IMG/VR virus record: IMGVR_UViG_3300044844_001004 | DNA from: a virus | Reading direction: 5' to 3' (one strand) | DNA length: 64,000 nt | In this document: piece after piece, positions 7,461-59,681 of the stretch | How positions within the stretch are numbered: the stretch's first letter is position 1 | Layout of the letters: the number at the start of each line of letters is the position of its first letter | Notes under the pieces: model-generated | What the model saw: the letters and a program-made list of their open reading frames with translations, nothing else | What the model was told of the DNA's origin: nothing | Database searches by the model: none | Position numbers and translations under genes: made by a program

Positions 7461-7496
7461 GCCGCCAGCCTTCACCGGTTAGGCGGCAATTTTTTT
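7461..7496 (+). terminator. rho-independent terminator candidate
   Basis: GCCGCC (7461-7466) pairs with GGCGGC (7482-7487), followed by a T7 run (7490-7496). It separates the small-ORF block from the morphogenesis operon. Confidence 0.5.
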
Positions 7497-7530
7497 GGTG
7501 GCAGCGAAACTTGGTAGGATTGAGGCGAAT

Positions 7531-9792
7531 ATGCGACTCCTCCACCAGATCACAATTATCGCGGCAGCAACGCTGTGCTTGTTCTCTCAAAAGCCTGATT
7601 ACGTGCGTGATTTGAAAAATCAGCCAGGCATCCCATCCGAGGCGTTCAACTTCCCGGCGGTGTCGTTCAGCACCACGCTCGCAGGCGCCGCGGAGGAGAC
7701 GTTCACATTCTCTAAATGTCCGCTCGGGTTGAAAGGGACGAATTTAGGCCCGTCCCTAACGATCACTGGCGTGGCCAATAACGGGAGTGGTCTAATCCGT
7801 ATCACGACAACCGCCCTGAATCTAGGAAGCGGCCAAAGAGTTTTGATATCTGGGGTGGGAGGCGTAACGGCGGCGAACGGAAACTGGGCGATCACTCGCG
7901 TCACATCAACGACTTTTGACCTAATCGGTAGCACTTTTTCCGGCGTATATACGAGCGGAGGGACCGCCAAGCAGTTAATCCACCCACTATACCTTTCCGG
8001 CGGAGTTGGCACGGCTGAGACGATTTTCGTGAGTGGAGGGACGTGTACTGGGCTCGGTTCATCCGGCACGATCAAGGCGTGGGTTAGCAACTCGCATTCC
8101 GGAACCTACTCAATAGCGCCAGCTTTTGGCGGCGTTGTGGAGGCGCTGTGGTCCCAAACCGGGACTCGCCGCTTGGTGTATATGAGCCAACCGACGATAA
8201 TCGTTCATGGTCCGCTGTGGTTAACTAGCGACTTCACGTCTGATATTTTTGGGGCTGGCATATTCAGTACGGTGTTGAGCCGGGCAAGCGATTATGCCGC
8301 CGACATAATTATTGTCGACTCAGTTGGAACTGGATCTGCCTTACATACGCTTCACGATTTTTGGATTTTCGCTCCGTACTTCAACGGAAGGTCTACTTCA
8401 GCGGCGATCCGCATTAGAGGGCATACCTGTTGTGGCGCATACCTCAACAGGATTAGGATTTGGGACGAGATCACTGGCGTGTATATAGATGCGGCTGACG
8501 ATATTCACTTGGATGAAATTTCTTTTTTGCAAACAAGAGTTTCTAATGAGCAGCCTTTCGCCGGGGTATACGTTACTGGAGGATCTACGAGTGCTGGTGG
8601 AGCATCCAGCGGGTTGTATGTCAGCAATTCTGAGTTTTCAGTTTCAGAGGGATATATCACCTCTATGCCGACAATCTCAGGCGCCGTTAATAACGGATCA
8701 GGACTGATTCGGTTGACGACGAGCGCAAATGTCTTCACCACGAACGACTGGGTGACCGTGTTTGGTGTTGGCGGAACGACAGAGGCAAACGGCAGTTGGA
8801 AGGTAACCGTCATCAACTCCACCACCATCGACCTGCAGGGCAGCACCTTCACCAACGCCTACACGACTGGTGGCCGGGCGATGTTCCAGAAGGTTCTTCA
8901 AAACGGCATGTATATTGAGAGCGCTGACGGGACAGCTATAAGCAACACGGCGCTGCGGGGAGAATTCGGGCTTAGAATCAATCCGCCTGAAGTGCTTTCT
9001 GGGGTTTTATTCGACAATGGGGTAATCGATCGAGTGCGGTACTCTTCGGTAGCGATAGGTAGCGTTAATCCGAATCCGCAAGGGCAGGTTTCAATATCAA
9101 ACTCGTGGCTAGTCGGTAATTATTACCCATCGTATCCAGGAATACAAATTGACATGAGTAATGCCACCGAGGGCAGGTTCATCCTGTCTGGAAACGATAT
9201 AGCCAGCCACCAAGGCCATTGCGTTGAATTGATAAACTCGAAGGGCGTGAAGGTATTCGGTAATACCATCGGCACCTGTGATTTATCCGGCGGCGGAGGC
9301 GGTGGAGTTGCTGTTTTAACGGCAGCCACAGGGTTATCTGTTGTTGATAATACATTCCGCGACATCGCCTCTCTTGGATCAACGACCAACTGGTGGGGGT
9401 ACTTCAACTCCAATATCACGAATTCTCAGTTCGTGAACAACGTGATGTACACGCCGGCATCAAGTTCGTTCTTCGTCCAGGCCGGGACCAACTCAAACTT
9501 CCTGACTTCGCCGAATGTGCGCGTTGACACAATCCCGTCGACCACCGTTTCGGCAAACACGATCGCCATTCCAGTCACCGTTCCAGACGTTCTGCAGGTG
9601 ACCGGCGGCGGCACTGCCACGCGGATGACAGGCGGCTGGCCAAGCCAGCGCATCAAGGTGTGGACGCAGTCGGCCACCACGTTCAACACCGGCGGGACAA
9701 ACCCGGGAGACTTCGGCGGTGCCTACACCAGCACGGCGAACCAGTGGGTGAACTTCGAGATGGCGAGCGACGGGAAGTGGTACCGGCAGTAG
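7531..9792 (+). CDS. beta-helix tailspike/fibre-like protein with N-terminal signal-like helix and an internal 69-aa duplication
   Basis: 753 aa from ATG 7531 (MRLLHQITIIAAATLCLFSQ). A module at 7762-7968 is repeated at 8674-8880, with about half of 69 positions identical by hand alignment. The C-terminal half has parallel beta-helix-like repeats (NGVIDR.., LSGNDIASHQGH.., FGNTIG.., VVDNTFRD..). Confidence 0.7.
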   Translation: MRLLHQITIIAAATLCLFSQKPDYVRDLKNQPGIPSEAFNFPAVSFSTTLAGAAEETFTFSKCPLGLKGTNLGPSLTITGVANNGSGLIRITTTALNLGSGQRVLISGVGGVTAANGNWAITRVTSTTFDLIGSTFSGVYTSGGTAKQLIHPLYLSGGVGTAETIFVSGGTCTGLGSSGTIKAWVSNSHSGTYSIAPAFGGVVEALWSQTGTRRLVYMSQPTIIVHGPLWLTSDFTSDIFGAGIFSTVLSRASDYAADIIIVDSVGTGSALHTLHDFWIFAPYFNGRSTSAAIRIRGHTCCGAYLNRIRIWDEITGVYIDAADDIHLDEISFLQTRVSNEQPFAGVYVTGGSTSAGGASSGLYVSNSEFSVSEGYITSMPTISGAVNNGSGLIRLTTSANVFTTNDWVTVFGVGGTTEANGSWKVTVINSTTIDLQGSTFTNAYTTGGRAMFQKVLQNGMYIESADGTAISNTALRGEFGLRINPPEVLSGVLFDNGVIDRVRYSSVAIGSVNPNPQGQVSISNSWLVGNYYPSYPGIQIDMSNATEGRFILSGNDIASHQGHCVELINSKGVKVFGNTIGTCDLSGGGGGGVAVLTAATGLSVVDNTFRDIASLGSTTNWWGYFNSNITNSQFVNNVMYTPASSSFFVQAGTNSNFLTSPNVRVDTIPSTTVSANTIAIPVTVPDVLQVTGGGTATRMTGGWPSQRIKVWTQSATTFNTGGTNPGDFGGAYTSTANQWVNFEMASDGKWYRQ

Positions 9793-27731: not shown

Positions 27732-29035
27732 TGCCGACGATTCTCGATAGGATCCACTCACGCACTCGGCCGCAACCGTACCGCTCGGACGGCCAGCCGG
27801 AAGCCGACTTCGAGCTCTGGGAGAACGGCGACGACATCCCTGTCCCGAAGGTCAGCATGGATGCCAACGACGGTTTGGATGATGACGAATCCGGTCCAGG
27901 CAGTCAGACCGACGACTATGGCAACATGCCGAACGCGAATCCAACGTCATACGACCGGTACCGTGGCGCCATCGAGAAGAAGGCGGCTTGGGAGCAAACG
28001 CGCCCGGGTATCTCCGACCACAAGCCGAAGGGTTGGCAGCGAGCGCTGGCCGGTGCCGCAAACTTCGGCGCCGGGTACGTCAACGCCGGCGGCCGAGTGC
28101 GCGTGGACCCAAAAGCCATGGAGTCGATCAACTCATCGTTATTGCGACCGGGCTATCAACGCGATATGGAGAAGTGGAGCGATCAGGCTGGAAGGATCAA
28201 TGCCGAGGTCGACGCCACAGGGCGCGAGATGCAGATGGACAACCAGCAGACCCGGGCGCGGCTGGATGCAGAGCGGGCGACGGCCTACAATGCAAACCAG
28301 AACGCGCAGGCGTCGCGGGCTCGGCGGCAAGAGCAGGAGATCGGCCGGCGGAAGTGGATGTCTAGCGACGGACTCAACGCTTGGCGAGAAAACGAAGACG
28401 GAACCGGCATTGAAAAGCGGGAGATCCGCCCGCCGTCACCTGGCCGCCCGGTGCCGGAAACGAAGGCTGAAGAGAAGGCCCGCTTATTGAAAGAGTCGCG
28501 AGAGGTCATGGGCCACAAGGACGGCTCTGACGAACAGAAGGCGTATCTCGGAGACTTCGCCGCGAAAGAACGCTTGAAGGCCGCAAATCGACCAGCGCGT
28601 GGTGGCGGCCGTGGCCGCGCAGAACCTCGTCGCATCGGCACGCCAGGAGAGTTCAATGGTGTCCGGAAGGACAAAGTCAGCGCGCTGCAGAAGTTGGAAG
28701 CCGACCTTTCGAAGCAGTTGGAAGAACTGAACACCACCTACCCAGGCGACGGAGATGATCCGACGACTAAGAATCTCCGCGTGGAGTGGCAAAAGAAGCA
28801 CGACAAAGAGGTTGCCGACCACGAGGCGAAAAAGAAGATGGTCATGGCCGAGTACGACGCCGGAGTCACCGGGCTCGGCGGATCAGTGGTGCCACGGCAA
28901 GCCACCGCCGCCCCGCCGCCATCGGCTCCGGCTGGTGGTGGGGAGGTAAGAGTGATGCTCCCAAATGGCAAAGAGGCCATTCTTCCGAATGAGCAGGCAG
29001 CAAAAGCGTATAAGTTGAAGTACGGACTTAAATAA
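27731..29035 (+). CDS. charged coiled-coil hypothetical protein (434 aa)
   Basis: TAATG overlap (internal ATG of track ORF 27701..29035). It is K/E/R/Q-rich. Confidence 0.6.
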   Translation: MPTILDRIHSRTRPQPYRSDGQPEADFELWENGDDIPVPKVSMDANDGLDDDESGPGSQTDDYGNMPNANPTSYDRYRGAIEKKAAWEQTRPGISDHKPKGWQRALAGAANFGAGYVNAGGRVRVDPKAMESINSSLLRPGYQRDMEKWSDQAGRINAEVDATGREMQMDNQQTRARLDAERATAYNANQNAQASRARRQEQEIGRRKWMSSDGLNAWRENEDGTGIEKREIRPPSPGRPVPETKAEEKARLLKESREVMGHKDGSDEQKAYLGDFAAKERLKAANRPARGGGRGRAEPRRIGTPGEFNGVRKDKVSALQKLEADLSKQLEELNTTYPGDGDDPTTKNLRVEWQKKHDKEVADHEAKKKMVMAEYDAGVTGLGGSVVPRQATAAPPPSAPAGGGEVRVMLPNGKEAILPNEQAAKAYKLKYGLK

Positions 29036-32000
29036 TGGCCGATCAGAAAATCGACTACGAGGCTGGCCTGAAGGAGTTTGGAGGCGTCCTCGCTCCGGAC
29101 TACGAAACAGGGTTGAAAGAGTTCGGCGGAACCATCGCCCCCTCGCGTCCCCTCGCATCCTCGCATAGCGAGGAGCCAATTCCCCTCGCTACGAGGGGCG
29201 CAGAATCCTCGCCTCCTCGCCTTGCTCCTCGCGTCCAAGATGTGTTCGGCCCAGAGCAATCCTGGATCCGCGAGCAGGCCGCCAGCAAGCCGCCAGCATT
29301 CAACTCTCCCGTCAAGGATCCATCTCCAGTTGTCCAAGACCGCCCAGGACCGGAATCGGTGCGCCCGATGGCCCCCACCTCTATCCCTCCTACGGTGGAG
29401 ACAACTCCAGTCGGTCGCGCCAATGCTCCTGTTCCCGGCCGAATCCCGGGGATGGAGCGATTGGGCGGCGCGGCACCTGGTGTGCCGCCGGTATCCGCGC
29501 AGATCAACGAAACCAACGCCCCTTCGCTTTCCGGTGATGTCGGTGGAGGATTTGTCCGCGGTGTGGCGTCTGGCGCCTTTGCAATCCCGCGCGCTCTCAG
29601 TCGCGTACCCAGCGGGTTCCGTGACGACATTAACTCCCTTCGCAGGACGCGGGAAGACATCGAGCCGAACCGCTTTGGACTCCGCACTCCAGAGCAGGTG
29701 GCCGAAGATGACGCCCGCCTGCGGCAGATTTCCAACAGCGATATCAACCGGTTTGAGCAGGCCGCGCTCCCCGCCGCCCCCGTGACAGGCGCTGGTAAGT
29801 TCACAGAAGCGCTCGGCTCGACGGCGCCGTACATGGCCGCCGGCGTTGCTGGCCCGGCTGGCCCGGCGGCACTTGGCATTCTCGCCGGTACCGAGGAGTC
29901 TCTTGGCCGTTCTGATGCCAGCGGGATCCCGTTGAGTGACGCCCAGCGGCTTGGCGTGGGTGCGGCCGGCGCCGCCATCGGATCCACGGAGGCCTTGCCG
30001 TTCGGCCGGCTGCTTGGACGACTCAAAGGTGCCGGCGTGATTGCCGACGCGGTCGACGAGACGCAGTTGGTGAAGCAGTTGTTCCCGGGGCTCAAGGACT
30101 ACGCGGTATCCGCCGGCAAGCAGGCGATAGAGGAAGGTGTCCAGGAAGGAACCTCCAACATCCTGCAGGATGTCACCGAGGCGTCGTACGGTGGCCGTCC
30201 CGTCAACCGCATCGGCGAAGGACTTGGCGAGTCAGTTACGACCGGCGGCGGTGTCGGGGCGCTCGTCGACGTGCTGACCACGCTCGCAGGTTCCCGCGCT
30301 GGCCGCGCCCGCCTTTCGCAGAACGGCGTTGACCCGGCCGCTTTGATGGCGTGGGTGCAATCGCAGGAAGTCTCCCCGTCGATGACGGCCGAGTTCGACG
30401 CGCTCGCCCGTGAGAACCGCGCCCCCAACCCTCCCCAAGCGGCGCCCATGGCCGCTCCCACCCCAAATCCAGCCGAGTCCCCCGCTTCGCCCCCACCCCA
30501 GCAGGCGGAGGTGGCCGCCCAGGTTCCTCCGCCCCCGCCCGGCTTCACGGTCGACCCCACTCCGGACGCGCTCGACCAGTTGGCGCAGGAGTTGAAGGCA
30601 AGGCAGCAGGGCGAAAATGCGGGAAATGCCACAAATAGCCTGAAAACGCCTGAAAACGCCTTAAATCCGCCCGCAAATGCCCCGGATGCGGGGATTGCGG
30701 GTATTGTTGCAAACAATGGAGTTAGCGGATTTAATCCCGCAAACACCCCCGCAAATCCCGCAACATCCCCCCGCACTATGGAAAACGCGGGGGGTGCGGG
30801 AATCTCCAGTAACTTCTCAAATAATCCTGCCCAGCCAGTTCCCGCACCGGGGCCGAGAGAGGAGGTGGTCCAGCCGGTACCCGTCGACGCTGCGGCCCCG
30901 GTGGCGGCAAGGATCAATGAGCCAGACTGGAAGCCTGTCGCGGCGAAGTGGTATGGCGACGCCTCTGGCGCCGTCGACTACGTGTGGAAGATCGGCGAGG
31001 ACCGGTCGTACGAGATGGTTCCGTTCGGGAACGAGGATCAGGCGCGCCTCATCCGCAAGTGGGACGGCGAGGATCAAGACCTTGGAGTGGTTGACAGCCT
31101 GGAAGAAGCCAGCCGAGTCGCAAAACAAGATGCCTCGGAAATGTTTGCGTACGACAATCCAGCACAGGAGTCCGATGCCCCGATTCCACCCGAAGCTCCT
31201 CCGCCGCCCAGTGCCGTGGAGGCTGCGGCGCCTGAAGCGCAACCACCAGCCGCGCCGAAAGAACCTCCGGCGGGAGTAGCAGCGTCGGTCAAGCGCTACC
31301 TCGACACGATCGCCGACGTCAACCGGCAGTTGGCCGAAGCACGCACCGTCGACGACAAGTTCGGCGGCGAAGGCCGTTACGAGAACGAAGTGTGGGACCG
31401 CCTGATGGGCGAAGGCGGAGCTATCACCGCCGAAGCGAGCAAGAAGCTGCAGGTGTTCCGCGACCTCGCCGTTAAGAACGGTGTCGACGCCGAGGCCTTC
31501 ATCGAAAAGATGGGCGGTATGCCGGAGTCGCCGGCGCTGAGTGATCGCGCGAAGAAGTACCGCGGTGAGTCTGTTCCGCCGGCTCTGGAGTCGCCTGGCG
31601 AGCGCAGTGAGGCGGAGAAGGTAGTAGACGAGATTGTAGGCGACAGCGGCGGGACCGTGGCGAGCGTCGACGGATTGATTGACTCGTACTTCAGCGACCC
31701 TCGCAAGGCAGTGCTGGATGAGATCAAGAAGCGGCTGACGGACCTGCAATACAACCAGGTCGCGTTCGACGAACTGACGAACGAGCAGCAAACCGCCATC
31801 AGCTTTATCATGGCGAACAAGGTGACCGACGACGCGGACCTGCCGACCGTCAAGATCCGCCGCGCCGGCCAGCCTTTCTCCACCCCGACCGTCCCGATTG
31901 AGGATCGCGGCGATGCCTACATGGATCGGATGTTTGCCATCAAGCGCAGAATCCGCAAGGGAGAGGTGCCTTCGAACAAGGACATGGCCATCCTTTCCGA

Positions 32001-35000
32001 CGCCGACCGCGCCTACATGGTGAAGTTCGGCGAGGCGGAGGGAGTTGTCATTCCGCCCCGGGCGGCCAAAGGGAAGAAGTCGGCCGCCGTGGAGGAGCCA
32101 GTGGCACCGCCGGCGCCCGTCGAGCAACCCAAAGACTTCCAGTGGAACGGCCCGGTGCCGAACTTCGAGAACTTCAAGGGGCGGGAGCCTAATCCTGCAC
32201 CCAGCGCGCCGCCCCCGGCAGACTCGAAGGTTGTGTACGGGAAGAAGTCCGGAACCGCCAAATTATCCCGTGGATACTCGGTACCGTTCACTTGGGGTGT
32301 TGTCCCGGCTGAATCGCTCATCCTCTCCAATGAAGACAATGGCGATATCAATAATCGGTTTCCGAAAGACCTGCAGCCACGGCAGCGCGACCGCGCCGCG
32401 TCAGAGATGCAGATTCAAGGCATCGCCGACAAGCTCGACCCTGAACAGGTGGCAGAGAGCTATGTTGCCGGTGACGGCGCCCCATTCATTTTTGACGACA
32501 TGGCCGTCGAGAGCGGCAACGGCCGCGGGCTCGCTATTCGCCGCGCCTACCGCCGGAAGATGGCCCAGGCAGAGGCATATCGCAACTGGCTGGAGAACAA
32601 CGCGGAACGGTTCGGGCTGTCAACCGCCGACGTCATGGCGATCGAGAATCCAGTTCTTGTCCGCGTCCGAACCGGCCTCCCGGAAGGTGTCTCCCGCCAG
32701 GACTTCGCCCGGGACGCCAACGAAGACACGAAGGCGCAGATGGCCGAAGGCGAGCAGGCGATGGTCGACGCGAAGTCGATGTCGGATGAACTCGTCTCGA
32801 TGTTCATGCCGAACGAAACCGGCGAGATTGCCACGCGCGCCAACTTCCCGTTCATCCTGCGATTCATTGAGCAGGTGGTTCCGGAGGGGCAGCGCGGCGC
32901 AATGCAATTGCCAGACAAGTCGATTTCGAAGAAGGGAATTGACCGGATCCGCAACGCTGTCTTCGCCCGCGCCTACAATGACCGCGGTATCGTCGAGCGG
33001 CTGGCCGAAGATCCGGACGACAACATCAAGTCGGTCGTTGGCGGGCTCACGATCGCGGCGCCGAAAATCATCTGGATGCGCAGTGGCATTGAGGCCGGCG
33101 ACTTCCACGATCTCGATATCTCCCCGGAGATTGCCGCCGCCGCCGCGCGCCTGTCGTACCTGCGAGAGAACCGGATTCCGCTGTCCGACTACCTGAACCA
33201 GATGACGTTGGAGCCGCGCGATCCGATCGAGGACGCGCTGTTGACGATGTTCAATGGGTACGGGCGGTCCAGCGCGAATGTCGCCGAAGTCCTTGGTGAG
33301 TACGTGGACGCAGTGCAGGCGCTCGGCAATCCAAAACAGGAGTCAATGTTCGGCGAGTCGACCATCCCGACCAAGCTGGAGTTGCTGGGTGCTATCGTTG
33401 AGGAGAAGAGGGCGCGAGATGAAGCCGCAAAGCGAGAAAAGCAGCAGCGTAAAGCAGGCCGAGAAGCCGACCAGGCCGGCGGATTGGATGCAGAAGGTGA
33501 GCCCGGCGGGACTGGAGCGGGCGAAGGCAGTCCTGGCCCGCGTCCGCGAGCAAAAGGCGAAGGCGAATCCGAAGTAGTCGGCTACGCCCCGGGAGGCACG
33601 CTCGGCGCCAAGCCGCCCAGCAACGGCAGCCGCGGCAAGAAAGCCACGCCGCCACCCGCCGGCCCCCGCACCGGAACCGCCGTCTCCCGCTCGGAGATCG
33701 TCAAGAACCTCTCGTCGTTCCTGAACAACATCCCGATCCGCACCGGTGGATTCCGCGAGCGCGCCGCCGGCATCTTCAAGGTTCGGCAGAACGTCATCCG
33801 CACCGCGAAGGCGCTGGACCTGGAAACCATCTCTCATGAGATCGGCCATGCCATCCACAAATACCTGTGGGGAACTCGCAAGGGAAGCCTCGTGGCTCTC
33901 AATCTGGCACCGCTGCGGCCGTTCCGCAACGAACTCGGCTTGCTCGACTACGACCAGAACAAGAAACGCGCCTACGAGGGGTTCGCGGAGTACATCCGCC
34001 TGCGCATCACGAAGCCTGCAGAGGCAAAGCAGCGGGCGCCGAAGTTCCACGCTTGGTTCAACCAGAAGCTCGGCGAGGCGCCGGAACTGGCTGACGTGCT
34101 GAAGAAGGCGCAGGATCAATACCTGAGCTGGGATATCCAGCCGTCGACGGTGAAGCTCGCAAAAAGCATCGACACGAAGCCAAACCACGAGACGTTCATG
34201 AAGCGCGTGACGGACGGGCTCACTGACTTCCGCTACAACTGGATCGACGACAAGACCGGCCTGCGGGACGCCGTCGAACTGTTCCAGAAGCTCGGCGCGA
34301 CCGTCGCGGACACCGCCAACGCCTACCGGCTGGCCCGCACCCTGAGCGGCACGTTTACCCGCGCCAATTTCGCCATCACCAACAAGACCGTGGGGGCCGA
34401 CAACGCCCCGAACGGCGCCGGCCTGGGAGAGATCCTGAAGCCGATCGCCGATCGCGATGTCTCCGAACGGAATCCGGCCTTCCAAAAGCTCGTGGATGAC
34501 TGGGGGATCCGGTTGTCCGATGACGGCGACGGCGACGGCATGGATGACTTCCGCGTCTACATCGTGGCCCGCCGGCTCCTCGACTACCGCGACAAAGGGC
34601 TGGAAACCGGCTTCACGCTGCGGGAATTGAAACGGGCGGTAGCCGATACTGAGACGCCAGCGTTGAAAGCAGCGGCAGATGAACTGCACGAATATTCCGG
34701 CCGGATCCTGGACTACGCCTACGAGAAAGGCGCCATGTCGGAAGCCACGCGCGAGGCCATCCGGAGCAAGAATGAATTCTACGTCCCACTGCACCGCGTC
34801 ATGGACAACGTATCCGAGGAGGACGCGAAGGCGATGCTCGGGCGCAAGATGCTCGACCTCAACTCGCCGATCCTGAAGCGCAAAGGAAGTACCCGGGAGA
34901 TCATCGACCCGCTCGAAAGCGTCATCAAGAACACCTACGCCATCATGTCGTTTGCCGACCGCAATGCCGTCGCGCAGGCGCTCGTGAAGCAGGCGGAGCG

Positions 35001-36828
35001 AGTGTCCGACCAAGGGTACCTCGTTGAGTCTGGAATCGTGAACCCGATGAAGGCGACGACGTTCAACCTGAAAGAAGTCAGCAAGGACATCATGGCCGCG
35101 CTGGAGGAGGCCGGGATCGACGGCAGTGAGTTGGAGCTCGACCACATGTCGACCATCTTCCGGCCGAACATGGACCCGCGCCGGTCCAACGGGGTGGTTC
35201 GCGTCATTGTCGACGGCGTGCCGAAGCTGTTCCAGATGGACAAGAACCTGATTCGCGCGCTCGACAATACGGAGGCGCAATTAGTTGACCCGTTCAAAAA
35301 GGCCGCCGCTAATGCCGCTGCTTCATTGCGCTTCGGCGCCACCGCCGGCAACCCGGAATTCATTCTCACCAACTTCTTCCGCGATCAGGGCATCGCTGGC
35401 ATCCAGAGCCGCAATGGATACCTCCCGATCATCTCCGGAATGTGGGGTGCCTTCAAAATGCTGTCGGATCCGAAGGCTTTCCAGGAGTGGCAGTTGGCTG
35501 GAGGTGCCACGGCGGCGATGATGCCGCTGACGCGCAAGAATCTCCGCCTCACCGTCGATAAAGTGACGAAGTCGAAGAAGGATCTCGTCCTCACTCATCC
35601 GGCGCAAATCTTCCCGCTCATGCGTGATGCGCTGACGTTCTTCGGAGAGAAATCGGAAGCGTCGACCAGGTTCGCTGAATACCTGCTGGCCAAGGGCAAG
35701 GGCAAGACCACCGCGGAGGCAGTGTTCGACTCCAGGGACGTATCGCTCGACTTTGAACGCATGGGCAAAATCGCAAAGACGGTCAACCAATTCGTCCCAT
35801 TCTTCTCCGTGGCGCTGAACGCCGGCGAGCGGTTCGTGGAGATGCACAACCCGCGGAACAAGAAGCAGTTCGCGCAGTCGCTCGCGAAAGGGCTCCTTGG
35901 CATCACGATCCCGACGATGATGCTGTGGTTACTGAACAAGGACGACGAGGAGTACAAGAACGTCGAGGCGTGGAAGCGCGATCTGTTCTGGCTGATCCCG
36001 ACGAAGTATTTCGACCCGTATTTATCGAAGGCCATTGGGGTTACTGCACGAGAAGCAGCCGGCCCGTTCATCCGGATCCCGAAGCCGCCGATGTGGGGGC
36101 AACTCTACGGATCGTTCTTCGAGCGCCTGGCTGATAGCCTGTACTCCAAAAACAAGCACGCCTTCGACGACTTCAAAAAGACGGCATTCCAGACGATCAT
36201 GCCGCCGGCCGCCATCCAAGCGATAAAGCCATTCGAGGAGGTGTTCAGTAACTACAACGCCTTCACCGATCGGCCCATTGAGACGGCTCAAATGCAAAAG
36301 CTGTCGGCGGAAAACCGGTATACGCCGACCACCTCGGAACTGTCGAAGGGTATTTCGAAAGTTATCGGCGGATCGCTCTCGCCGGTCCAGGTCGAGCACT
36401 TGCTCCTCGGCTACACCGCCGGGCTCGGCCGAGTTGCAATCACCGGCGGCGAGGAATTGGCCGGGCTCCGCAAGGACAGGCCAGCAATGGAGGCATCAGA
36501 GCGGCCGTTCGTGCGCGCGTTCGCCACCCCGTCTAGCCCATACTTGTCGACCAACTTCAAACTGTTCAAGGAGCGCTTGGAAAAGCTGAAACAGAAGCGG
36601 GAAGACTTTAAGTTCTCCAAGAATCCGAAGTACCGGATGACGTCCGCGGATGAGGCGAAACTCGCCAAGCTGGAAGACATCAACGAAAGCGTCAACGAGA
36701 TTCGATCGAAGCAGTTCAAGGTGTACGGAAACAAAGCATTATCCAGGGATGAGAAGCGGCGGCAGATCGACCTGATGAACAAGCAGCGCGACGAGATCCT
36801 GAAGCGCACAAAGCCGTTGTACGATTAA
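29035..36828 (+). CDS. giant polyvalent virion protein (2597 aa) with a ParB/Srx-like region and an HExxH zincin motif
   Basis: Single uninterrupted ORF. It starts with a tandem DYE(A/T)GLKEFGG repeat and has P/A/N-rich linkers. A ParB-like stretch (DLQPRQRDR...ESGNGRGLAIRRAY) and HEIGH plus a downstream EGFAEY are present, followed by a ~900-aa conserved-looking C-terminal body. Confidence 0.85.
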   Translation: MADQKIDYEAGLKEFGGVLAPDYETGLKEFGGTIAPSRPLASSHSEEPIPLATRGAESSPPRLAPRVQDVFGPEQSWIREQAASKPPAFNSPVKDPSPVVQDRPGPESVRPMAPTSIPPTVETTPVGRANAPVPGRIPGMERLGGAAPGVPPVSAQINETNAPSLSGDVGGGFVRGVASGAFAIPRALSRVPSGFRDDINSLRRTREDIEPNRFGLRTPEQVAEDDARLRQISNSDINRFEQAALPAAPVTGAGKFTEALGSTAPYMAAGVAGPAGPAALGILAGTEESLGRSDASGIPLSDAQRLGVGAAGAAIGSTEALPFGRLLGRLKGAGVIADAVDETQLVKQLFPGLKDYAVSAGKQAIEEGVQEGTSNILQDVTEASYGGRPVNRIGEGLGESVTTGGGVGALVDVLTTLAGSRAGRARLSQNGVDPAALMAWVQSQEVSPSMTAEFDALARENRAPNPPQAAPMAAPTPNPAESPASPPPQQAEVAAQVPPPPPGFTVDPTPDALDQLAQELKARQQGENAGNATNSLKTPENALNPPANAPDAGIAGIVANNGVSGFNPANTPANPATSPRTMENAGGAGISSNFSNNPAQPVPAPGPREEVVQPVPVDAAAPVAARINEPDWKPVAAKWYGDASGAVDYVWKIGEDRSYEMVPFGNEDQARLIRKWDGEDQDLGVVDSLEEASRVAKQDASEMFAYDNPAQESDAPIPPEAPPPPSAVEAAAPEAQPPAAPKEPPAGVAASVKRYLDTIADVNRQLAEARTVDDKFGGEGRYENEVWDRLMGEGGAITAEASKKLQVFRDLAVKNGVDAEAFIEKMGGMPESPALSDRAKKYRGESVPPALESPGERSEAEKVVDEIVGDSGGTVASVDGLIDSYFSDPRKAVLDEIKKRLTDLQYNQVAFDELTNEQQTAISFIMANKVTDDADLPTVKIRRAGQPFSTPTVPIEDRGDAYMDRMFAIKRRIRKGEVPSNKDMAILSDADRAYMVKFGEAEGVVIPPRAAKGKKSAAVEEPVAPPAPVEQPKDFQWNGPVPNFENFKGREPNPAPSAPPPADSKVVYGKKSGTAKLSRGYSVPFTWGVVPAESLILSNEDNGDINNRFPKDLQPRQRDRAASEMQIQGIADKLDPEQVAESYVAGDGAPFIFDDMAVESGNGRGLAIRRAYRRKMAQAEAYRNWLENNAERFGLSTADVMAIENPVLVRVRTGLPEGVSRQDFARDANEDTKAQMAEGEQAMVDAKSMSDELVSMFMPNETGEIATRANFPFILRFIEQVVPEGQRGAMQLPDKSISKKGIDRIRNAVFARAYNDRGIVERLAEDPDDNIKSVVGGLTIAAPKIIWMRSGIEAGDFHDLDISPEIAAAAARLSYLRENRIPLSDYLNQMTLEPRDPIEDALLTMFNGYGRSSANVAEVLGEYVDAVQALGNPKQESMFGESTIPTKLELLGAIVEEKRARDEAAKREKQQRKAGREADQAGGLDAEGEPGGTGAGEGSPGPRPRAKGEGESEVVGYAPGGTLGAKPPSNGSRGKKATPPPAGPRTGTAVSRSEIVKNLSSFLNNIPIRTGGFRERAAGIFKVRQNVIRTAKALDLETISHEIGHAIHKYLWGTRKGSLVALNLAPLRPFRNELGLLDYDQNKKRAYEGFAEYIRLRITKPAEAKQRAPKFHAWFNQKLGEAPELADVLKKAQDQYLSWDIQPSTVKLAKSIDTKPNHETFMKRVTDGLTDFRYNWIDDKTGLRDAVELFQKLGATVADTANAYRLARTLSGTFTRANFAITNKTVGADNAPNGAGLGEILKPIADRDVSERNPAFQKLVDDWGIRLSDDGDGDGMDDFRVYIVARRLLDYRDKGLETGFTLRELKRAVADTETPALKAAADELHEYSGRILDYAYEKGAMSEATREAIRSKNEFYVPLHRVMDNVSEEDAKAMLGRKMLDLNSPILKRKGSTREIIDPLESVIKNTYAIMSFADRNAVAQALVKQAERVSDQGYLVESGIVNPMKATTFNLKEVSKDIMAALEEAGIDGSELELDHMSTIFRPNMDPRRSNGVVRVIVDGVPKLFQMDKNLIRALDNTEAQLVDPFKKAAANAAASLRFGATAGNPEFILTNFFRDQGIAGIQSRNGYLPIISGMWGAFKMLSDPKAFQEWQLAGGATAAMMPLTRKNLRLTVDKVTKSKKDLVLTHPAQIFPLMRDALTFFGEKSEASTRFAEYLLAKGKGKTTAEAVFDSRDVSLDFERMGKIAKTVNQFVPFFSVALNAGERFVEMHNPRNKKQFAQSLAKGLLGITIPTMMLWLLNKDDEEYKNVEAWKRDLFWLIPTKYFDPYLSKAIGVTAREAAGPFIRIPKPPMWGQLYGSFFERLADSLYSKNKHAFDDFKKTAFQTIMPPAAIQAIKPFEEVFSNYNAFTDRPIETAQMQKLSAENRYTPTTSELSKGISKVIGGSLSPVQVEHLLLGYTAGLGRVAITGGEELAGLRKDRPAMEASERPFVRAFATPSSPYLSTNFKLFKERLEKLKQKREDFKFSKNPKYRMTSADEAKLAKLEDINESVNEIRSKQFKVYGNKALSRDEKRRQIDLMNKQRDEILKRTKPLYD
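32280..32650 (+). other. ParB/sulfiredoxin-like domain inside the giant ORF
   Basis: VVPAESLILSNED...FPKDLQPRQRDRAASEMQIQGIADKLDPEQV...APFIFDDMAVESGNGRGLAIRRAY matches the ParB N-terminal pattern (xxQPRxR ... GxGRxxA). Confidence 0.5.
33700..34100 (+). other. zincin-like metallopeptidase motif region inside the giant ORF
   Basis: HEIGH is encoded at 33835-33849 (ETISHEIGHAIHKYLWG). A downstream Glu candidate lies in YEGFAEYIRL at about 33973-33993. Confidence 0.45.
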
Positions 36829-58752: not shown

Positions 58753-58849
58753 ACTGCACCGCCTTCAACCAAACCAGGCGCGCGACACTCCGCCGGCGAC
58801 GTCTCGCTGCACGCCAGTAGGCGCGGCGGTAGAGCTTGCCGGCGTTCAT
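58745..58849 (-). CDS. hypothetical Arg-rich 34-aa peptide
   Basis: Not in the track. ATGA overlap upstream and an 8-nt overlap downstream. Confidence 0.3.
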   Translation of the reverse strand: MNAGKLYRRAYWRAARRRRRSVARLVWLKAVQYA

Positions 58850-59103
58850 GCGGTGGCCTCTTCCGACTCCGGCACCAGAGCCGGACGCCGCTTCTGTTCG
58901 GCGTAGTACGCCTTCCAAAGTGCTGTTCTCGCATCGTTGATATCAGGCGGTAATGCGTCAATCGTGAAGCCCCACTCATGCCGCAATCGGCCTAGTTGGT
59001 GGATAGCGGCCTCGATGCACTCAAGCCGCGCTTTGTGGCTGTAGAACGCTACATCGGCAGCGTGTACGCCTGTTGTCAATCTCTTCATATCGTTCCTTTC
59101 CAT
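58846..59103 (-). CDS. hypothetical protein (85 aa)
   Basis: Track ORF preceded by GGAAAGGAACGAT. Confidence 0.5.
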   Translation of the reverse strand: MERNDMKRLTTGVHAADVAFYSHKARLECIEAAIHQLGRLRHEWGFTIDALPPDINDARTALWKAYYAEQKRRPALVPESEEATA

Positions 59104-59157
59104 CGAGCGATAATCCCGCCCCCTAAGCGGCCCGCTTGGAGCCGCCAGGGGGAAGGA

Positions 59158-59325
59158 CTAAACCGACCGCGACCACGACCCCGACCGCGACCCCGACCGC
59201 GACCCCGACCCCGACCACGACCACGACCCCGACCCCGACCACGACCCCGACCGCGACCACGACCCCGACCGCGACCACGACCGCGACCCCGACCCCGACC
59301 GTTTGTTTCTTTTAGATCGAATCAC
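59158..59325 (-). CDS. candidate 55-aa repeat peptide MIRSKRNK-(R/G/W-S)23-V
   Basis: GTG starts 1 nt after the upstream stop, with GGAGGT 5 nt upstream. It fills the only gap in the operon, but the repeat variation is non-synonymous in this frame. Confidence 0.25.
   Translation of the reverse strand: MIRSKRNKRSGSGSRSWSRSGSWSRSGSWSGSGSWSWSGSGSRSGSRSGSWSRSV
59164..59301. repeat. 23 tandem CGACCN hexamers
   Basis: Hand-parsed with no indels. Five positions are invariant. N is C ten times, G seven times, A six times and never T. Confidence 0.95.
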
Positions 59326-59326
59326 G

Positions 59327-59587
59327 TTACACCTCCCGATACGATTCGATGGACGCTACGCGCACGTACAGCGGCCCGCCGAACTTCTGCTCGTCCTGGA
59401 ATATTCCGGCGTTGAGCGGCCCGGTCTCGTACACAATCCCGGCGTCCTCTAAAAGCACGTCCGACGTGTTCACCCCGGCCAGCACACCGCTGTAGAAGTA
59501 GTTAGCGCAGAGAAGCAGCACGCGCTTCCCCAAAAGCCCCACAAGGCCCTCGCCTTCAACTTCCGTCACTGTGACTATCTTTTTCAT
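59327..59587 (-). CDS. hypothetical protein with Sm/LSm-like sequence pattern (86 aa)
   Basis: Track ORF with RBS AGAGGA. LLGKRVLLLCANYFYSGVLAGVNTSDVLLEDAGIVYE resembles Sm1, and PLYVRVASIESY resembles Sm2. The fold assignment is by eye only. Confidence 0.5.
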   Translation of the reverse strand: MKKIVTVTEVEGEGLVGLLGKRVLLLCANYFYSGVLAGVNTSDVLLEDAGIVYETGPLNAGIFQDEQKFGGPLYVRVASIESYREV

Positions 59588-59607
59588 GTGTCCTCTGTTT
59601 TCTCGCT

Positions 59608-59648
59608 CTGCATTATACGAGGGCTTGCGACCTCCGGTGGCTGCATTA
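59608..59648 (-). promoter_or_regulatory. possible internal promoter: TATAAT box flanked by two TAATGCAG repeats
   Basis: Minus-strand TATAAT lies at 59617-59612, 24 nt upstream of ATG 59587. CTGCATTA occurs at 59608-59615 and 59641-59648. No good -35 box is present. Confidence 0.3.
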
Positions 59649-59681
59649 CTCCGGGGTATAGCTCCCGGTCGCTGTGATGGA

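Follow-up and report, generated by a model that had tools for sequence, protein, structure and literature searches.

At positions 59164-59301 of a viral DNA stretch of 64,000 nucleotides (nt; IMG/VR record IMGVR_UViG_3300044844_001004; the whole stretch is called the window below), 23 tandem CGACCN hexamers follow directly on an open reading frame (ORF) of 86 amino acids (aa) that resembles Sm/LSm proteins. The locus raises the question of which reading of the array, if any, is translated, and what its product might do. A preliminary description, made from the letters of the window alone, preferred an Arg-Pro or a Gly-Arg dipeptide repeat because the variable base N is silent in both of these frames within this one array. 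Comparison with related loci supports the third reading instead: on this comparative evidence, a real small minus-strand gene (59158-59325) has the array as its coding core and specifies a Ser-[Gly/Arg/Trp] microprotein. Together with the Sm-like gene, and in hundreds of uncultured phages, this gene appears to form an undescribed two-gene module. The identity of the small gene and of the module is held with high confidence.

Array and small gene in the window

Direct reading of the sequence gives 23 CGACCN units at 59164-59301 without indels, in which N is C ten times, G seven times, A six times and never T. Tandem Repeats Finder reports period 6, 23.0 copies and 0% indels at 59163-59300, and the earlier unit and base counts are thereby reproduced. 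The three-unit pattern GGTCGNGGTCGNGGTCG has 21 matches, all within 59164-59300, and 0.58 are expected from shuffles. The three readings that had been described are present as well. The plus-strand frame, 58996..59415, reads Arg-Pro and is antisense to all neighbouring genes, and one minus-strand frame reads Gly-Arg, lacks a start codon and is closed by the TGA at 59324-59322. The other minus-strand frame, 59158..59325, opens with a GTG located 1 nt past the TAA of the 86-aa ORF and has GGAGG 5 nt upstream. In this last frame the array consists of 23 TCG and 23 NGG codons (GGG 10, CGG 7, TGG 6, AGG 0), and the features of the pair are as follows.

59327..59587, minus strand: gene for the 86-aa acidic protein with a predicted Sm fold (net charge -4, isoelectric point (pI) 4.6), first gene of the module
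59332..59336, minus strand: Shine-Dalgarno sequence GGAGG of the small gene, within the last Sm-like codons, 5 nt before the GTG
59158..59325, minus strand: predicted gene for a 55-aa microprotein, MIRSKRNKR-(Ser-X)n-V, the only frame conserved at related loci
59302..59325, minus strand: leader of eight codons (GTG ATT CGA TCT AAA AGA AAC AAA), A-rich and basic
59164..59301, minus strand: array of 23 NGG-TCG units encoding X-Ser, in which X is Gly ten times, Arg seven times and Trp six times
59158..59163, minus strand: tail, GTT (Val) and the TAG stop; GGT replaces GTT in the relative L148

The predicted product, read from the GTG at 59325 to the TAG at 59160-59158, consists of a basic leader of about nine residues followed by (Ser-X)23, where X is Gly, Arg or Trp. 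It contains 24 Ser, 10 Gly, 9 Arg and 6 Trp and has a net charge of +11 and a pI of 12. The AlphaFold2 (AF2) model, computed from the single sequence, has no secondary structure and a predicted template modelling score (pTM) of 0.16, which weakly suggests that the peptide is disordered. A protein database search with the peptide yielded 2286 word-sharing candidates and none at E <= 1e-3, probably because of composition correction, and the NCBIfam matches to the repeat are weak low-complexity matches only, one of them to SdrC.

Reading frame conserved at related loci

About 150 related loci were used to compare the frames (27 arrays anchored on an Sm-like gene and 121 arrays found by pattern). 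Through the 86-aa protein, 24 viral loci were fetched, and contigs of metagenome-assembled genomes (MAGs) were also compared. Nearly all of the fetched loci carry a short ORF right behind the Sm-like homologue, composed of a basic leader and then a hexamer array. The sense Ser-X frame is open in every array of both sets (27/27 Sm-anchored and 121/121 pattern-found). The spacer triplet differs by lineage and is TCT, TCG, TCC, TCA, AGC or AGT, which are all six Ser codons and belong to two unrelated codon boxes. The other triplet of the unit is nearly always NGG. Among the 684 units of 28 non-redundant arrays, Ser occupies the first position in 621, and the second position holds 240 Gly, 189 Trp and 186 Arg. 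The surroundings of the array are also similar: in the 27 arrays, the leader has a median length of 10 codons (interquartile range (IQR) 9-12.5), with recurring motifs KRNK, KQK, TKR and M.R.KRNK, and the tail after the array has a median of 2 codons (IQR 1.5-3). In the closest viral relative fetched, L001, whose Sm-like protein is 97% identical, an ATG lies 3 nt further on and the basic leader reads MRGRKQRVAR.

The base composition at N bears directly on the choice of frame. In 142 non-redundant arrays, N, here the first base of the NGG codons, is G (Gly) with a frequency of 0.33, T (Trp) with 0.33, and A or C (Arg) with 0.34. The Gly, Trp and Arg fractions are not correlated with the GC content of the locus (rho -0.10, 0.14 and 0.02), and the AGG and CGG codons (N = A and C) are, in opposite directions (rho -0.49 and +0.55; p ~1e-9 to 1e-12). 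That A and C swap with GC content while their sum stays constant fits two synonymous Arg codons and not a neutral wobble base; a neutral base would track GC content, yet the T and G fractions are constant. The GC-independence of Gly, Trp and Arg is regarded as the strongest single argument for the Ser-X frame. The absence of T at N on the plus strand of the window, a count that was borne out, is better read as Arg codon usage than as silent wobble, because GC-rich TCG-type arrays take CGG, not AGG, for Arg.

In the antisense frame, Arg-Pro is limited to TCT- and TCG-type arrays, and Ala-Pro, Thr-Pro or Gly-Pro takes its place where the spacer is AGC, AGT or TCC. This frame contains 22 TGA stops in L017, lacks a start codon in 11 of the 27 arrays and has tails of 3 to 147 codons. 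The sense Gly-Arg frame is restricted to TCG-type arrays and is replaced elsewhere by Gly-Leu, Gly-Ala, Gly-Pro and Gly-Val. The residues of both frames thus change across related phages, and neither of the two frames that had been preferred is conserved. The proposal of peptide-level selection is retained, although the peptide on which it would act is Ser-[Gly/Arg/Trp] and not an Arg-Pro or Gly-Arg dipeptide.

Two arrays on MAG contigs are irregular. In L156:546-773, 5-nt units shift the reading among the Gly-Arg, Val and Ser-X frames, and L152:3261-3332 contains an in-frame TAG. Both are probably sequencing errors or decayed copies.

The Sm-like protein

The AF2 model of the 86-aa protein, based on an alignment of 57 sequences, has a mean predicted local distance difference test score (pLDDT) of 90.1 and a pTM of 0.77, and contains one helix (residues 14-17) and five strands. 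In a Foldseek search of the PDB, all 50 listed matches are Sm, LSm or SmAP (Sm-like archaeal protein) structures, with target-normalised template modelling (TM) scores of 0.55-0.83 and E values of 1e-4 to 1.5e-3, and the top matches include the SmAPs of P. abyssi and P. aerophilum. The model and these matches support the earlier assignment, made by eye, and the 86-aa ORF is confidently predicted to encode an Sm-fold protein. Curated profiles do not detect it: there is no match in Pfam (E <= 1), NCBIfam or PADLOC, and the PHROG match is non-significant. A profile of the protein finds only a spurious Mx1 match among PDB sequences. Nothing useful was returned by Pfam, PHROGs, NCBIfam or PADLOC for the microprotein either.

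The protein has 779 homologues, and at 50% identity the number of clusters is at least 513. Members of the family are acidic (median net charge -3, pI ~4.9), and Tyr30, Tyr32, Gly34, Asn40, Thr55-Gly56, Asp65, Gln67 and Glu81 are invariant. A conserved 20-residue insert (YETGP...D.Q) is located between strands 3 and 4. Additionally, three relatives (P0125, P0130 and P0180; 186-218 aa) carry two Sm-like domains per polypeptide, which hints at domain-domain association.

Gene pairing and copy number

The array is located just downstream of the Sm-like gene at about 20 of the 24 viral loci found through the Sm-like protein, and on most of the MAG contigs. Linkage was also counted from the arrays, using 73 pattern-found loci with a bona fide small Ser-X ORF and enough upstream sequence. 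An Sm-like gene lies upstream on the same strand in 49 of them, 29 times from family A1, to which the protein of the window belongs, and 20 times from family A3. The proposed tie between the array and an Sm-like module is therefore upheld, and it extends over two subfamilies. The A3 proteins have 90-115 aa and are homologous to A1 only at the profile level (hhalign probability 96.7%, E = 4e-10). Net charges of the Sm-like families range from -1 to -6, and that of the peptide is +11. No conserved third gene emerged besides the Sm-like gene when neighbours were clustered at 63 non-redundant loci. At several further loci, arrays occur on both flanks of the Sm-like gene.

The distance from the Sm-like stop to the start of the small gene has a median of 2 nt over 59 junctions, and 18 junctions overlap by 4 nt, the start lying 1 nt before the stop. 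The cistrons are separate in 59/59 junctions, with a stop codon between the genes, and the frame offset is variable. The repeat had also been suggested to be a frameshift-dependent tail of the Sm-like protein, which is contradicted by these stops and by the lack of a fixed offset; the junctions indicate that the two genes are separate, translationally coupled cistrons and not a frameshift fusion. Sm-like homologues that are longer were found to be N-terminal miscalls, double Sm-like domains or chimeric assemblies.

The number of tandem small-gene copies per locus ranges from 1 to ~12-19. In L026 (~5.5-9 kb, minus strand), ~12-19 copies with MITKRTRWRR-type leaders extend over ~3.5 kb, and L045:1548-4114 carries ~8-10 copies with MRYLFEGS leaders. 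In these two families, the GGAG that closes one array is often the ribosome-binding site of the next copy. In L075:9192-10221, on the same contig as L002, the whole two-gene module is tandemly doubled, with Sm-like matches of E = 1e-45 and 1e-42 and an array after each.

An exact scan of IMG/VR for six GGTCTN units (TCT-type) returned at least 120 contigs. Literature searches, in which literal peptide strings were included, returned no description of the family, and comparison of a 4-kb region with GenBank phages gave only a 42-nt chance-like match. A scan of bacterial genomes found only 9 MAG contigs, probably binned phage, and gave no host assignment.

Evolution of the array

Five contigs with an identical Sm-like protein form a near-identical set. 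L145 equals the window over 5261 nt without a difference. L146 has 14 units fewer (84 nt, in frame), one single-nucleotide polymorphism (SNP) elsewhere and flanks that are 99.96-100% identical; counted as TCGNGG, its array has 8 units, and those of the window and L145 have 22 (23 when counted as CGACCN), the count for L146 being taken from a short-read assembly. Over 3556 nt, L147 shows a single SNP, which lies at an N position where TGG replaces GGG. Over 2959 nt, L148 shows two, and the small gene contains both of them: GGG replaces TGG at an N position, and GGT replaces GTT in the tail. Three of the four SNPs in ~14 kb of aligned near-identical contigs thus fall within the 168-nt small gene, a figure that could include assembly artefacts, as near-identical units can be scrambled in metagenome assemblies. 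These comparisons indicate that the array changes faster than its flanks, through in-frame gain and loss of units and through changes at N.

Along the arrays, the order of Gly, Trp and Arg is indistinguishable from shuffled order and shows no positional pattern. The composition, about one third of each residue, is conserved and the order is not. A length-variable contingency locus had been considered; unit number does vary (8 vs 22), but an on/off frame switch does not fit, since the change of 84 nt is in frame and a 6-nt unit inside an ORF cannot act as a frameshift switch. The array was also considered as the target of a diversity-generating retroelement and rejected as such, there being no template copy in the 64-kb window. 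Neither Tandem Repeats Finder nor a pattern scan found a second array copy in the window, and no reverse transcriptase was present among the ten large window ORFs covered by a non-exhaustive scan.

Possible function and comparison with known systems

Considered as a whole, the locus is best explained by a Ser-X small gene that forms a module with an Sm-like gene and whose product is an RNA-acting partner, an explanation to which slightly better than even confidence is attached. A specific mechanism can be offered only tentatively and falls short of even confidence: a polycationic peptide may act with an Sm-like oligomer on RNA. The peptide would be a multivalent disordered polycation in which Arg and Trp provide sticky contacts and Ser and Gly serve as spacers. 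It would be made together with, and bind, an acidic Tyr/Glu-rich Sm-like oligomer, and the two would bind or condense RNA, possibly DNA, early in infection. The peptide would then correspond to the Arg/Gly-rich tails that eukaryotic Sm proteins carry, but be encoded by a gene of its own. The rapid diversification and the copy amplification suggest a target that is contested by the host. A more elaborate formulation is also conceivable, though rather doubtful. It describes a two-component system that joins an acidic Sm-fold oligomer to one or many hypervariable (Ser-[Trp/Arg/Gly])n microproteins, with NGG as an evolved one-base toggle by which the sticky residues are quickly re-patterned. During the takeover of the cell, the pair would form RNA-protein assemblies or condensates, or would neutralise a host factor, under arms-race selection. 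If this formulation were true, both the class of viral effector and the genetic design for evolvability would be new, and gene callers would be overlooking or misframing them.

Several observations weigh against an RNA-acting module of this kind. An Sm-like gene is not found directly upstream at 24 of the 73 array loci, and the 9 fetched relatives whose sequence extends past the Sm-like match include no fusion of Sm-like and Ser-X sequences. The canonical RNA pocket of Sm proteins is not clearly kept: in a by-eye alignment, Asn40 is invariant, but the L3 loop is one residue shorter than the canonical loop and Arg76 is Gln or Met in relatives. No cultured phage encodes either Sm-like subfamily, the only matches being two Manatee Spring metagenome phages. 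Possible assembly artefacts among the SNPs have been mentioned above, and peptide-level selection alone does not seem to explain the codon pattern of the arrays, which is described in the next section.

Eukaryotic SmD1, SmD3, SmB and LSm4 carry Arg/Gly-rich C-terminal tails. The phage pair is similar in that an Sm fold is combined with a basic, Arg/Gly-containing, low-complexity disordered segment, which suggests joint action on RNA. It differs in that the repeat is a separate cistron at all 59 junctions and is not found as a tail of the nine longer relatives, in that Ser occupies every second residue and one third of X is Trp, so that the repeat is not Arg-Gly, and in that the Sm-like protein is acidic and has no LSM/Hfq profile match. 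To our knowledge, no arginine-methylation machinery occurs in the context of the phage module.

Small phage proteins with a predicted LSm-like fold are also found in phage T4, where three such proteins are early and a GoF mutant affects mRNA stability. Unlike the protein described here, the T4 proteins have extra C-terminal domains; no sequence relationship was detected, and their paper describes no adjacent repeat microgene. Hfq and archaeal SmAPs share the single-domain Sm fold of ~70-90 aa, whereas the phage protein is missed by curated profiles and has the 20-residue insert between strands 3 and 4. Strict alternation of Ser and short tandem DNA repeats are shared with the RS domains of SR proteins and with the Ser-Asp repeats of staphylococcal Sdr/Clf adhesins. 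Those repeats, however, are regions of large proteins and have one fixed partner residue, whereas the phage repeat makes up nearly the whole protein and its partner is Gly, Trp or Arg.

The tandem repeats of Borgs are perfect head-to-tail repeats with units divisible by three, lie in ORFs, evolve fast and encode disordered low-complexity products (PMC9879509). The phage array is alike in its in-frame repeat, its predicted disordered product and its fast turnover. Borg repeats arise independently in many unrelated genes (PMC9879509), whereas hundreds of phages share one dipeptide design, which they encode with different codons and which is tied to a specific partner gene.

That the Ser-X module is a genuinely new type of viral system is possible, although the opposite seems likelier. 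The module accounts for the cluster and contig numbers given above (at least 513 Sm-like clusters at 50% identity, at least 120 TCT-type viral contigs), is absent from Pfam, NCBIfam and PADLOC, and has no significant PHROG match. It would link Sm-fold proteins to disordered Arg/Trp-rich partners outside eukaryotes and would offer a simple two-gene system for study. A composition fixed at one third each, with free order, additionally provides a natural experiment in composition-driven function and evolvability.

Alternative explanations

The peptide might instead be a toxic or inhibitory effector, either membrane-active or nucleic-acid-binding, or a decoy or inhibitor of host defence. The Sm-like oligomer would then be its chaperone or neutraliser, and an arms race would drive the amplification and the switching among Trp, Gly and Arg. 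The opposite charges (+11 vs -4), the tight coupling of the cistrons, the presence of up to ~12-19 diversified copies per locus, the concentration of differences between near-identical genomes in the small gene and the Sm RNA pocket that is not clearly kept are all in line with such an effector. Trp/Arg-rich peptides are classic antimicrobials, which counts in the same direction, and indolicidin, tritrpticin and synthetic (RW)n are short cationic examples. The phage peptide is unlike these in having Ser throughout and Gly at one third of X. Moreover, it has no signal peptide, its surroundings contain no lysis genes, and its gene stands in an early operon among early and nucleotide-metabolism genes. 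Known defence and anti-defence models gave no match, and random order with fixed composition fits a specific inhibitor interface poorly. An effector role is considered unlikely, though it is the main alternative.

The codons are the basis for the idea that the array works mainly as nucleic acid and that the ORF is secondary; its GG every 6 nt might give the Sm-like protein a platform to bind, form a G-rich structure or act as an iteron. In 92% of units the X codon ends in G, even though its third base is silent for Gly and Arg. In the 684 units, deviations at the third base (56) and at the non-synonymous second base (59) are equally rare, so that synonymous sites are no more variable than non-synonymous sites. 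Even AT-rich phages, whose rarest codons are GGG and AGG, use both of them in the arrays, against the codon bias of the genome. In a larger set that is biased to perfect units, amino-acid changes (10-12%) are the commoner kind of deviation and synonymous ones (2-5%) the rarer. Fast turnover and homogenisation of units, combined with selection for a mix of Trp, Gly and Arg, are a possible cause of the G-ending codons; an extra need for GG every 6 nt at the nucleic-acid level is another. Of all codon boxes, NGG alone lets a single base switch among Trp, Gly and Arg.

Against a primarily nucleic-acid role, the 3-nt spacer always encodes Ser, by codons of two unrelated boxes (TCN and AGY). Conservation also extends to the start, the Shine-Dalgarno sequence, the leader motif and the stop, which follows the array within ~2 codons. 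The proportions of G, T and A+C are independent of GC content, and A and C swap with it. The sense array RNA folds no better than shuffled sequence (z = -1.26), and no Rfam family was found over the array. This role is thus judged improbable. Two further ideas about the codons were tried and rejected: by our own reasoning, a self-pairing RNA register of GGUCGN does not transfer to AGC- and AGT-type arrays, and an effect on tRNA supply was dropped because the phage encodes no tRNA.

A protamine-like condenser of the phage genome, or a packaged internal protein akin to baculovirus P6.9 and protamines, with the Sm-like neighbour incidental or an assembly chaperone, is a shade less probable still. 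The very basic, Ser/Arg-rich product of ~55 aa and the high copy number in some phages would suit such a protein. However, the gene is situated in an early minus-strand block, far from the plus-strand structural genes at 7.5-41 kb, Trp at one third of X is unusual for protamines, and the link to Sm-like genes in two subfamilies is left unexplained.

The short leader, the repetitive Trp/Ser/Arg core and the tandem precursor-like paralogues also recall a precursor of a ribosomally synthesised and post-translationally modified peptide (RiPP), in which Trp-x-Arg or Trp-x-Trp cross-links would form as in darobactin and triceptides and the leader would be the recognition sequence. This is very improbable: at the 63 non-redundant loci, conservation of neighbours is limited to the Sm-like gene and includes no modifying enzyme such as a radical-SAM maturase. 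The very short leader also speaks against it, as does the random order of X, which is unsuited to a defined cross-link motif.

The least credible reading of all is that the plus strand yields poly-(Arg-Pro), or the minus strand poly-(Gly-Arg), and that N is a silent wobble base. It seems largely refuted by the frame comparison, even though N is synonymous in both frames of this array, the other five positions of the unit are invariant and the antisense frame stays Arg-Pro in two array types. Membership among the poly-PR and poly-GR dipeptide repeats or the Pro/Arg-rich antimicrobial peptides is likewise not supported, since the residues of the frames that would yield them are not conserved.

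Locus annotation and genome context

The array microgenes have probably been missed or misframed in other annotations too, and the comparative evidence favours the Ser-X frame. In the Joint Genome Institute (JGI) annotation of the identical contig, a 51-aa gene is placed over the array in a Val/Gly/Ala-rich frame (59123..59278, minus strand, which corresponds to L145:2810-2965), and no gene is called at the array site in a Logan assembly. All genes in this part of the window are on the minus strand, and the small gene is followed by two further features.

59119..59152, minus strand: GC-rich hairpin (CCCCCU...AGGGGG) without a U-tract, in the 54-nt gap before the next gene, present in both the minimum free energy (MFE) and the centroid fold
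58846..59103, minus strand: 85-aa ORF, the next gene

The hairpin was not called by the terminator scan, and promoter and terminator scans of the locus gave nothing informative. Strong hairpins without a clear U-tract are also observed between the Sm-like stop and the small-gene start at several other loci (L010, L018, L019, L021 and L023). Such hairpins might act in processing, as attenuators or as stabilisers.

Upstream of the Sm-like gene, a twister-P1-like element is located at 59600-59652 (minus strand), 12 nt before the Sm-like ATG and within a 94-nt gap. It is the only Rfam match in the 64-kb window (E = 0.007), and its score of 31.6 bits falls below the gathering threshold, which is 67.2. 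The twister-like core UAA..GCC..GGUCGCAAGCCC..GAGCG is present together with P2 (UGCA/UGCA) and P4 (GAGG/CCUC), and P1 and the optional hairpin are absent. One pseudoknot appears to be compensated, CGC:GCG for CCC:GGG, in part by comparison with the Osa-1-4 sequence. Outside this phage and its identical copies (L145-L149) the element was not found, and it is absent upstream of other Sm-like genes; since it is confined to one phage lineage, it is not part of the module.

The window corresponds to nearly the whole genome of a phage of ~64 kb, which encodes a primase-polymerase, a helicase, a terminase, an integrase and a 2597-aa polyvalent protein. The last of these, at 29035-36828 (plus strand), has ddrB-like ParB and LPD38 domains and belongs to the large polyvalent protein type of some phages and conjugative elements. 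Additionally, a 765-aa ORF just upstream of the terminase gene (7495-9792, plus strand) matches the FCCH domain of ubiquitin-activating enzyme E1 over residues 412-462 (E = 1.2e-10), which is unexpected in a phage structural block.

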